Made by a program: the position numbers and the translations under genes. From Bacteroidales bacterium (GTDB taxonomy: Bacteria; Bacteroidota; Bacteroidia; Bacteroidales; F082), in NCBI GenBank assembly GCA_017539045.1, contig JAFYHS010000012.1:109124-173123 (forward strand): a stretch of DNA of 64,000 nucleotides, in the 5' to 3' direction. Under the pieces are notes generated by a model. The model made no database searches and was not told where the DNA came from. It was given only the letters and a program-made list of their open reading frames with translations. Below are positions 25,684-26,892 of the stretch, one piece after another. The stretch's first letter is position 1, and every line of letters starts with the position of its first letter.

Positions 25684-26892
25684 ATGAAAAGAACCATCAT
25701 CATCACTGGAGGCGCTGGCTTCATCGGCAATCACGTCGTTCGCCTCTTCGTCAACAAATATCCTGAATACAAGATCATCAACCTCGACAAGTTGACCTAC
25801 GCAGGCAACCTCGCCAACCTGAAGGACATCGAAGACAAGCCGAACTACCGCTTTGTCAAGATGGACATCTGCGACTTCGAGGGTGTCTACAAGTTGATGC
25901 AGGACGAACACGTCGACGGCATCATCCACCTCGCCGCCGAGAGCCATGTGGACCGCTCCATCAAAGACCCGTTCACCTTTGCGCAGACCAATGTGATGGG
26001 CACGCTGAGCCTGCTGCAGGCTGCCAAACTCTATTGGGAAGCCCAACCAGAGCCTTGGAAAGTTAAGGTCCCTGAGCCCGTCGAAGGGCCGACCATAAAA
26101 GACGGTGCTTCGACAGGCTCAGCAACCTGCGTTCCTTGCCGCTTCTACCACATCAGCACCGATGAGGTCTATGGTGCCTTGGAGCTGACCGACCCCGAAG
26201 GCATCATGCCTCCTTTCAGCACCAAGGCCAGCAGCGGACAGCACCACTTGGCCTATGGCAGCAAGTTCTTCACCGAAGACCTGAAATACCAACCCCATAG
26301 TCCCTATAGTGCCGCCAAGGCAAGCAGCGACCACTTTGTGCGCGCCTTCCACGACACCTACGGCATGCCCACGGTGGTGACCAACTGCTCCAACAACTAC
26401 GGCCCATACCAGTTCCCCGAGAAGCTGATCCCGCTGTTCATCAATAACATCCGTCACCGCAAGCCGCTGCCTGTCTACGGCAAAGGTGAGAACGTGCGCG
26501 ACTGGCTCTATGTGGAAGACCACGCCCGCGCCATCGACCTCATCTTCCATGAAGGCAAGGTGGCCGAGACCTACAACATCGGCGGCTTCAATGAGTGGAA
26601 GAACATCGACCTCATCAAGGTGTTGATCAATACCGTTGACCGCCTGCTGGGTCGTCCCGAAGGAGCCGATATGGACCTCATCACCTATGTCACCGACCGT
26701 GCCGGACATGATATGCGCTATGCCATCGACTCGACCAAACTCCAGAAAGAACTGGGTTGGGAGCCCAGCCTGCAGTTTGAGGAGGGCATTGAGAAGACCG
26801 TCCGTTGGTATCTCGATAACCAGGAATGGATGGACAACGTGACAAGTGGTGACTATCAGAAGTACTACGACGACATGTACAAAAACAGATAA
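25684..26892 (+). CDS. rfbB: dTDP-glucose 4,6-dehydratase carrying a ~20-aa in-frame repeat-derived insertion
   Basis: [13 protein letters not shown]...HISTDEVYG...[17 protein letters not shown]...[19 protein letters not shown]. At 402 aa it is longer than the RmlB sequences I recall. The extra segment [21 protein letters not shown] coincides with hairpin element B1. Confidence 0.95.
   Translation: [402 protein letters not shown]
26067..26127 (+). repeat. Palindromic repeat family B, copy B1 (inside rfbB)
   Basis: ggtccctgagcccgtcgaagggccgacc-ataaaa-gacggtgcttcgacaggctcagcaacc, with imperfectly complementary arms. Confidence 0.8.

Follow-up and report, generated by a model that had tools for sequence, protein, structure and literature searches.

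A dispersed hairpin repeat inserted in frame in the rmlB gene of a Bacteroidales bacterium

The palindrome that interrupts the dTDP-glucose 4,6-dehydratase gene (rmlB) of Bacteroidales bacterium (F082) is a copy of a dispersed hairpin repeat that was inserted into the gene with the reading frame kept. The stretch analyzed here, referred to as the window, comprises 64,000 nt of assembly GCA_017539045.1 (contig JAFYHS010000012.1, positions 109,124-173,123). The insertion is polymorphic in that it is present in some close relatives and absent from others, and the stem of the repeat unit is constrained. As an explanation of the whole, we consider it probable that the palindrome is a copy of a non-autonomous repeat family that populates rumen Bacteroidales and resembles repetitive extragenic palindromes (REPs) and REP doublets forming hairpins (REPINs). 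Labels beginning with L denote DNA loci fetched for comparison (252 loci, 2.1 Mb in total), and those beginning with P denote protein homologues.

Results

A clean 72-nt insertion in rmlB

25684-26892, + strand: host gene rmlB, dTDP-glucose 4,6-dehydratase, 402 aa (TIGR01181, PF16363, PF01370); reading frame open across the insert
26041-26067, + strand: left flank of the loop; differs from the empty allele at about half of its positions, against 93-97% identity in the remainder of the gene
26068-26139, + strand: inserted doublet of 72 nt (24 codons), missing from the empty alleles L001 and L002; boundaries ± a few nt

The host open reading frame (ORF) scores 447.5 bits against TIGR01181 (curated cutoff 365.1) and also matches PF16363 and PF01370, with the match to the RmlB profile broken into two stretches by the insert. 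The RmlB motifs GGAGFIG, STDEVYG and YSAAK are all kept in the translation, in agreement with an earlier note on this DNA, which had read the frame as open and the catalytic motifs as intact; the peptide encoded by the palindrome also agrees with the one given there. An inverted-repeat search places the arms of the palindrome at 26066-26091 and 26103-26128 (26 nt each, 81% complementary, 11 nt apart). Folded as RNA, the segment 26055-26140 reaches -42.9 kcal/mol, compared with -23.8 ± 3.5 kcal/mol for 200 dinucleotide-preserving shuffles, none of which was as stable (z = -5.5). The imperfect palindrome that the earlier note had recognized inside the gene is thus borne out; its size of about 61 nt holds for the palindrome itself, whereas the segment inserted relative to empty alleles measures 72 nt. 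An Rfam search returned only a tRNA above the gathering thresholds, with the element itself giving just sub-threshold noise.

Between W and RFYH, the loop of the window RmlB comprises 34 residues, against 11 residues from KYW to RFHH in Salmonella RmlB (1g1a) and 17 in Elizabethkingia RmlB (8du1), the two closest solved structures. The figures of the earlier note, about 10 residues for this loop in E. coli RfbB and an excess of some 20 residues here, are thus borne out.

Comparison with 120 close RmlB homologues identified enzymes in which the loop is empty. Outside the loop, which reads ...WESLPEKWEGK-RFYH in both of them, P0085 (380 aa; cluster size 8026 sequences) and P0088 share 97-98% of their residues with the window RmlB. 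At the DNA level, their loci L001 and L002 align to the window with 93-94% nucleotide identity and a single clean 72-nt gap that coincides with 26068-26139, and the gene order galE, rmlA, rmlB, DUF4954 is common to the window and both loci. The orthologue alignment that the earlier note had proposed as a check hence reveals a clean indel at the site, of 72 rather than about 60 nt, and the competing possibility that it had named, an ancestral loop shared by all orthologues, fails on the existence of P0085 and P0088.

The insertion is shared by many relatives, in some of them in the opposite orientation, and the alignments point to an event that is old and polymorphic, not recent. Because the approximately 25 nt to the left of the gap diverge far more than the rest of the gene, the comparison suggests that this version of the rmlB loop predates the genetic background in which it now lies and was shifted by recombination. 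The same flank contains AGTTAAG, a match to the outer end of the full-length element consensus.

The repeat unit has a covarying stem and a conserved loop

The rmlB palindrome is an inverted heterodimer of two subtypes of a stem-loop unit, with a CCCT/AGGG stem in the left unit and a TGCT/AGCA stem in the right one.

26066-26094, + strand: left unit, type A, composed of AGGT, stem CCCT (26070-26073), loop GAGCCCGTCGA (26074-26084), stem AGGG (26085-26088) and tail CCGACC
26095-26100, + strand: spacer ATAAAA between the units, varying among copies and orthologues
26101-26130, - strand: right unit, type B, inverted; on the + strand GACGG, stem TGCT (26106-26109), loop TCGACAGGCTC (26110-26120), stem AGCA (26121-26124) and ACCTGC

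The unit is a stem-loop of about 24-30 nt with the layout (A)GGT-NNNT-GAGCYYGTCGA-ANNN-CCGAC, in which a covarying 4-bp stem encloses a conserved 11-nt loop; the unit consensus is yTAAGGTCCCT-GAGCCTGTCGA-AGGGCCGAC. Across 126 aligned arm sequences of related loci, from which a profile of the arm was built, conservation reaches background about 5 nt beyond the 26-mer, and the unit accordingly extends over some 30 nt (yTA-AGGTCCCTGAGCCTGTCGAAGGGCCG-AC), equal to ten codons.

The most frequent stem is CCCT/AGGG (141 counts), followed by CGTT/AACG (26), GCCT/AGGC (7), TGCT/AGCA (5), CATT/AATG (2), CACT/AGTG (2) and several found once. For the 150 distinct units in all fetched DNA, the covariation score is 0.511, compared with 0.198 for shuffled partners (the observed value was reached in none of 500 shuffles) and 0.13-0.18 for slid controls, and each of the inner four stem pairs is paired in 81-89% of the units, with 6 to 58 double changes. 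The rmlB gene of L203 (RUG13196), which carries the same insertion as the window, differs at 5.2% of its nucleotides (55 synonymous and 4 non-synonymous codon differences); within the element there are only four differences, which form the two compensatory pairs 26106 T>C with 26124 A>G and 26108 C>T with 26122 G>A. Units whose stem has just one mismatch show G·T more often than A·C (21 against 8) on the GAGCYYGTCGA loop strand, which is weak evidence for folding of one specific strand of the unit.

Other copies in the window are also in frame

With up to two mismatches, the arm core CTGAGCCYGTCGAAG matches the window seven times, compared with 0.28 matches expected, and none of 100 shuffles reaches seven. 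The profile built from related loci recovers the same seven arms. They make up four sites, all in frame, of which the three besides rmlB are listed here.

33184-33248, + strand: second doublet, a near-homodimer, in frame in ORF 32394..33788; no empty allele found
46159-46230, + strand: third doublet, 72 nt in frame in the DegT/LegC-type aminotransferase ORF 46004..47407, read in the same frame as in rmlB (KVPELVEGPTFNDGISTGSTTC)
61959-61983, - strand: single type A unit, inverted, a 24-nt in-frame insert in the alpha-2-macroglobulin ORF 57876..63950, reading GPSTGSGT

Insertion is proven for the DegT and alpha-2-macroglobulin copies because empty alleles exist for both: L251 has a clean 72-nt gap at the DegT site, and the eight codons of the alpha-2-macroglobulin insert are missing in P0241/L250 and in all distant homologues. 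ORF 32394..33788 has no Pfam match and only weak similarity to a glucosamine-6-P deaminase-like family; at the orthologous site, L201 has a doublet and L167 one unit. The occurrence of copies in unrelated genes confirms that the palindrome belongs to a dispersed repeat; the earlier note had taken the rmlB copy for an inserted repeat.

The DegT ORF holds a further insert, of an unrelated type.

46939-47013: CGTC-tagged REP head-to-head dimer (units 46949-46973 and 46982-47006), 75 nt in frame in ORF 46004..47407

This insert reads LYDRHAGLDPASHEIAGQARNDGMQ and is missing from the 94%-identical relative P0123/L252. The insert lengths that could be resolved are 72, 72, 24 and, for the unrelated CGTC dimer, 75 nt; all are multiples of three and stop-free.

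Distribution of the family and its coding context

A scan of the 26-mer arm against one genome per GTDB species matched at least 120 loci, and among the matches listed nearly all are metagenome-assembled genomes (MAGs) of uncultured rumen Bacteroidales/Bacteroidia, including RUG isolates, 'bacterium F082', Ca. Limimorpha and MAGs from deer, goat and yak rumen. Additional sites occur in the fetched loci, for which about 8 kb was sampled around each element site, at a density of approximately one per 39 kb. A strict pattern search for pairing among 129 arm hits found 18 inverted pairs and 111 hits without a detected partner, and tandem clusters occur too (L233, L178). Since partly deleted doublets are observed, such as that in L164, at least some singletons appear to be decay products of doublets.

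A unit was counted as intragenic when one frame through it was free of stops for 60 or more codons to either side. By this measure, 61 of the 129 units (47%) are intragenic, compared with 69% of random 26-nt windows from the same loci; coding sequence is only mildly avoided. The intragenic units read GPSTGSGT (22), PEPVEGP (21), ALRQAQGP (14), PFDRLRD (3) or LSLSKGR (1). All five stop-free frames are thus in use, with a strong skew to readings rich in Pro, Gly, Ser and Thr, the pattern that would be expected from selection for flexible, hydrophilic loop insertions. As all resolved lengths are multiples of three, the inserts are most probably translated; bypass by the ribosome or removal of the insert is unlikely, as lengths that are stop-free and divisible by three would be needless if the segment were skipped.

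Exact 26-mer arms were also found in MAGs with labels outside the Bacteroidota, namely L127, L167 and L183 (Ca. Limiplasma), L154 (Fibrobacter succinogenes RUG11295) and L140 (Actinomycetota); L167 is the locus in which the orthologue of ORF 32394..33788 bears a single unit at the same site. These could be mis-binned Bacteroidales contigs or cases of horizontal transfer. At intergenic copies of the element (L200, L206, L242, L164, L132), the right flank often has short repeats of the AACTGAAYAAC type, a motif that the DegT relative P0149 also contains in translated form, as NCQLSTDNCQL.

At least 120 IMG/VR contigs, viral or prophage (L005-L124), contain the 17-mer CCTGAGCYYGTCGAAGG; they range from 32 to 74% GC, and the flanks of the 17-mer are lineage-specific. 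The sequences next to these cores are subfamily-specific (ccgttcgc-, gtcat-, cctgt-), with partner units that have GGT/ACC or GCT/AGC closing stems, and Watson-Crick pairing is seen at the first flanking pair in 75% of cases, compared with 44% for shuffled partners. The stem-loop core is thus much more widely spread than the Bacteroidales family and appears to be common to several phyla. A tentative extension, which we regard as possible but doubtful, is an undescribed cross-phylum superfamily of hairpin repeats whose functional core would be the 19-nt stem-loop N-CCT-GAGCYYGTCGA-AGG-N', with flanks that differ by lineage, both in rumen Bacteroidales and in the viral and prophage contigs. In Bacteroidales it would colonize coding DNA almost as freely as non-coding DNA and, alongside several other palindrome families, would repeatedly target a few permissive protein loops and replace the hairpins already there. 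Such a superfamily would imply a hairpin-directed mechanism of insertion and a conserved binding partner for the invariant loop.

The RmlB loop is an insertion hotspot

In a set of 72 RmlBs with 88% or more identity to the window protein, the loop is empty in 3, has the window arrangement in 17, the inverted arrangement in about 12 (KVAEPVEAPT..DGPSTGSGTC, e.g., L157 and L248) and other content in 33. The last group includes different palindromes: a CGTC-type REP in L246, a long 'HVIPSDEGAS' palindrome in L247 (-49 kcal/mol) and a GC-rich palindrome in L249 (-80.6 kcal/mol); loops of the ECGMRNAE..HSAF type are seen elsewhere. Because the loop is either empty, filled either way round, or filled by unrelated palindromes in relatives, these comparisons identify it as an insertion hotspot.

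Relatives of the DegT protein display the same turnover of inserts at three sites, and in relatives the rmlB and DegT hotspots are also filled by CGTC-like inserts. The third DegT site, which is not in the window, lies near the C-terminus (GVESLEFRVESLPNGI..QTSDKS; alignment columns ~438-460) and was seen in P0122, P0125, P0134, P0199 and P0165. Site 1 is occupied in other relatives by other repeats (IAGQARND, NCQLSTDNCQL, ASNHEPLTVNHEP).

Further variable segments were noted near rmlB and among its relatives. At 24138-24716, a GIY-YIG ORF (24205..24597) is flanked by direct repeats of about 45 nt, CATTCTCAAAGGAGTCATTGCGGACTCC[G/A]ATCCGCAATCTCC, each of which holds a (C)GTC-ATTGCGGA..TCCGCAAT hairpin; a third such hairpin (24575-24599) encodes the C-terminal tail of the protein. 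The segment is present in L001 and not in L002-L004, where galE adjoins rmlA, and it looks like a small mobile cassette tied to CGTC-type REPs. Another small cassette with variable presence in this operon is an ORF of the PDDEXK_3 family (PF13366) between rmlA and rmlB in L002 (2590-2964) and L248 (1291-1494); the corresponding spacer in the window is 12 nt. The RmlB relative P0016 (419 aa) has a tandem duplication of 15 residues (alignment columns 306-320) that is shared by no other relative and is possibly an assembly artefact, the contig being 2.1 kb.

Position of the insert in the RmlB fold

The insert is located between the helix side with LLQAAKLYW and the RFYHISTDE segment, the strand that bears the TDE motif. 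This is where solved RmlBs vary in length and where pairwise alignments break. In a Rossmann fold, the connection from this helix to the TDE strand lies away from the cofactor site. Alignment to the solved enzymes, taken together with this general property of the fold, would place the insert in a surface loop, a placement that modeling leaves unproven. Two AlphaFold2 runs, for which the input homologues were all at least 85% identical and the alignment accordingly shallow, had mean predicted local distance difference test (pLDDT) values of 54.4 and 67.6. The better of these low-confidence models has residues 126-151 as a protruding β-hairpin with pLDDT below 50 at the tip, and Foldseek ranked RmlBs first for it, with a template-modeling score of only ~0.49 and a root-mean-square deviation of ~16 Å to 8du1 and 1g1a.

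Discussion

Proposed origin of the insertion

A doublet entered the variable RmlB segment as a 72-nt insertion, a multiple of three with no stop in the frame used. We propose that it is translated as 24 extra residues without disturbing the enzyme. Frame-preserving insertions located in loops would be the only ones to survive selection, and the old polymorphic allele would then have moved among related strains by homologous recombination. The units themselves would be copied by a trans-acting enzyme whose gene lies elsewhere. Judged from REPs and their REP-associated tyrosine transposases (RAYTs), the likeliest candidate would be an HUH/Y1 transposase that recognizes hairpins in single-stranded DNA, and RAYT subclasses with 'atypical secondary structures' have been reported in Bacteroidetes (PMC6006769). 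Gene conversion among copies probably homogenizes the units, and single units may at least in part be decayed doublets.

Several observations weigh against this proposal. A motif search of the 2.1 Mb of fetched loci detected no class-2 Y1/RAYT motif, and no RAYT was found in the window or in the ~0.9 Mb of element flanks, where sampling of ~8 kb per site could easily miss a single-copy gene. No protein family recurs beside the elements other than as syntenic orthologue pairs, and the three resolved junctions show neither a target-site duplication nor a common target sequence. Single units far outnumber doublets, which fits the REPIN model, with the doublet as the replicating form, only if decay is fast. 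All filled rmlB alleles, including those filled by other palindrome families, end in [V/I/T]PC, which empty alleles lack, and since this trailing motif is common to all filled alleles a single simple insertion does not seem enough to explain the history of the site. Either an ancient insertion was later overwritten again and again, or hairpin elements are drawn to hairpins already present. Insertion sequence (IS) elements are known to target REPs (PMC1525189). Finally, translation of the insert is something that we infer, and the poor models leave its surface exposure undemonstrated.

One transposase gene was considered as a mobilizer and rejected. The IS200-like Y1 gene of L205 (6935-7760; NHVH..WQ..YIRNQAEHH), which resembles subclass 1.2 of PMC6006769, is flanked by its own inverted GTCCTGAAAGGACG hairpins, which are private to it, are not dispersed and occur nowhere else in the 252 loci.

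Alternative explanations

The hairpin might instead be kept for a nucleic-acid role at the site, for instance as an mRNA stem-loop in the rml operon that slows the ribosome or governs decay, as a DNA cruciform or as a protein-binding site, with any effect on the coding sequence incidental. Such a role would agree with the invariant loop of the unit, with stem changes that are compensatory only, at the orthologous rmlB site as well, with the very stable fold at rmlB and, as a weak sign of specific-strand folding, with the excess of G·T over A·C mismatches. The covariation, however, could equally stem from recognition by a mobilizing enzyme or from replacement with copies of other subfamilies, and no site-specific function is conserved, the rmlB site being occupied in either orientation, occupied by unrelated palindromes or empty in close relatives. 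Furthermore, intragenic units lie both ways relative to transcription (unit strand coding in 22, opposite strand coding in 39), which argues against a role in mRNA and is compatible with one in single-stranded DNA. We consider it unlikely that a nucleic-acid function at the site accounts for the hairpin.

A second alternative dispenses with transposition: the units would spread in the manner of uptake-signal sequences, or by biased gene conversion or homologous recombination, and the rmlB allele would have been imported by recombination. Comparison with orthologues speaks against this, since it shows the units to be genuine insertions of 24-72 nt and not motifs made by substitution, as does the occupation of many unrelated genes and intergenic sites, for which some process that creates new sites is required. 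The uptake sequences of Neisseria and Haemophilus have cores of 9-12 nt, and the present unit is much longer than known uptake sequences; we reject its identity with a DNA uptake sequence, as the units are insertions and are not enriched by substitution. On the other side stand the lack of a detected transposase, target duplication or target motif, the predominance of short single units, the ~25 nt of flank, which diverge much more strongly than the remaining gene, as an imported patch would, and the subtype swap between the window and L203 (TGCT/AGCA to CGTT/AACG), which resembles conversion from another copy. Spread without any transposition seems quite unlikely to us.

That the loop is ancestral or adaptive and its DNA palindromic by coincidence, or that the peptide itself is selected as a linker or surface-variation module, is very improbable and already largely refuted: loop length does vary among solved RmlBs (17 residues in 8du1), the loop is hypervariable among near-identical enzymes and the low-confidence model has the insert protruding as a β-hairpin, but the DNA sequence is found again in unrelated genes and between genes, the closest relatives include empty alleles, and no single peptide is conserved because the unit is read in five frames and both orientations.

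Relation to known palindromic repeats

Returning to the inserted REP/REPIN-like repeat as the preferred explanation, its closest analogue is, by function, the Rickettsia palindromic elements (RPEs) and, by architecture, the REPs and REPINs. RPEs are short palindromes found in frame in unrelated housekeeping genes whose ORFs stay open (Ogata et al. 2000, 2002, summarized in PMC10969869 and PMC3733652), with about half of the copies intragenic and several families per genome. The present element likewise is an in-frame palindromic repeat missing from orthologues (gaps of 72, 72 and 24 nt relative to L001/L002, L251 and L250, respectively). It differs from RPEs in its hosts, which are free-living rumen bacteria of the Bacteroidota rather than obligate intracellular Alphaproteobacteria, in being read in five frames and both orientations, and in its sequence, for which no similarity is apparent, RPE consensus sequences not having been compared. 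It is also smaller, with doublets of ~62-78 nt, units of ~24-30 nt and 24-nt singles being common, whereas the RPEs first reported are ~150 bp long (PMC10969869). We treat the Bacteroidales element as an analogue of the RPEs, not as a member. The comparison with Rickettsia drawn in the earlier note was apt in this sense, whereas in-frame REPs are known well beyond Rickettsia: intragenic REPs are on record for Opitutus terrae and Thauera, as well as for Rickettsia conorii and other species (PMC3733652).

With REPs, bacterial interspersed mosaic elements (BIMEs) and REPINs, the element shares a short stem-loop unit with conserved tails that is repeated as an imperfect palindrome in singletons, inverted dimers (including heterodimers) and clusters (PMC3116915, PMC3337134, PMC3733652, PMC6006769), occurrence at on the order of a hundred sites per genome, and subfamilies that differ by compensatory stem changes. 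In contrast to REPs, it is not mainly extragenic, the 47% of units in long ORFs being far above what is normal for 'extragenic' palindromes, and no flanking RAYT was found in the material searched. GTAG REPs have a stem of 6-13 bp, and CGTC REPs, which include RPE-4, RPE-6 and the Neisseria dRS3 repeats, have a stem of 8-9 bp starting with AT and a loop of 4-5 nt (PMC3733652). The present unit belongs to neither group: its stem is only 4 bp, its invariant 11-nt loop is unusually long, and GGTC stands in place of a tag. The layout of the type B unit (GGTC, hairpin, tail) is analogous to that of CGTC REPs, but the CGTC tag, the AT-starting 8-9-bp stem and the 4-5-nt loop are missing; the neighboring element at 46939-47013 does fit the CGTC definition.

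Intragenic MITEs (transposable elements of the miniature inverted-repeat type; ERIC, Correia/NEMIS, Nezha, BOX) are also small and non-autonomous, have inverted ends and may give in-frame fusions (PMC10969869, PMC3184786). MITEs measure 70-300 bp, are derived from IS elements, and have terminal inverted repeats of 15-30 bp and usually target-site duplications. The doublet as a whole is an inverted repeat, but no duplication is evident at the three junctions and no related IS was found beside the elements.

Significance

The insertion in rmlB is the same kind of event as those that gave rise to RPEs and intragenic REPs, and is not a new mechanism. The literature searched contains no paper with the loop, the arm or the encoded peptides, the motif was not found in the supplements of PMC3733652, and no description of such elements in Bacteroidales was encountered, in line with the statement in the earlier note that none was known for Bacteroidota. 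A 2024 review (PMC10969869) still calls the frequency of RPEs unusual and treats occurrence elsewhere only as speculation.

The colonization of genes in frame by palindromes, usually presented as a curiosity of Rickettsia, is thus widespread in abundant free-living rumen Bacteroidales, where several families of repeats take part, about half of the units sampled lie inside genes, and sugar-nucleotide enzymes are a recurrent seat of insertion hotspots. For annotation, this means proteins lengthened by 8-25 residues, split hidden Markov model matches, and strain length polymorphism that can be mistaken for assembly error. With respect to the evolution of protein loops, the inserts are ready-made segments rich in Pro, Gly, Ser and Thr, and for the biology of repeats they provide a REP-like unit with an invariant 11-nt loop for which no transposase has been identified. 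The interest of the finding lies in the high intragenic frequency in a second, free-living phylum, together with the turnover of multiple families at a hotspot and a unit with a conserved loop.

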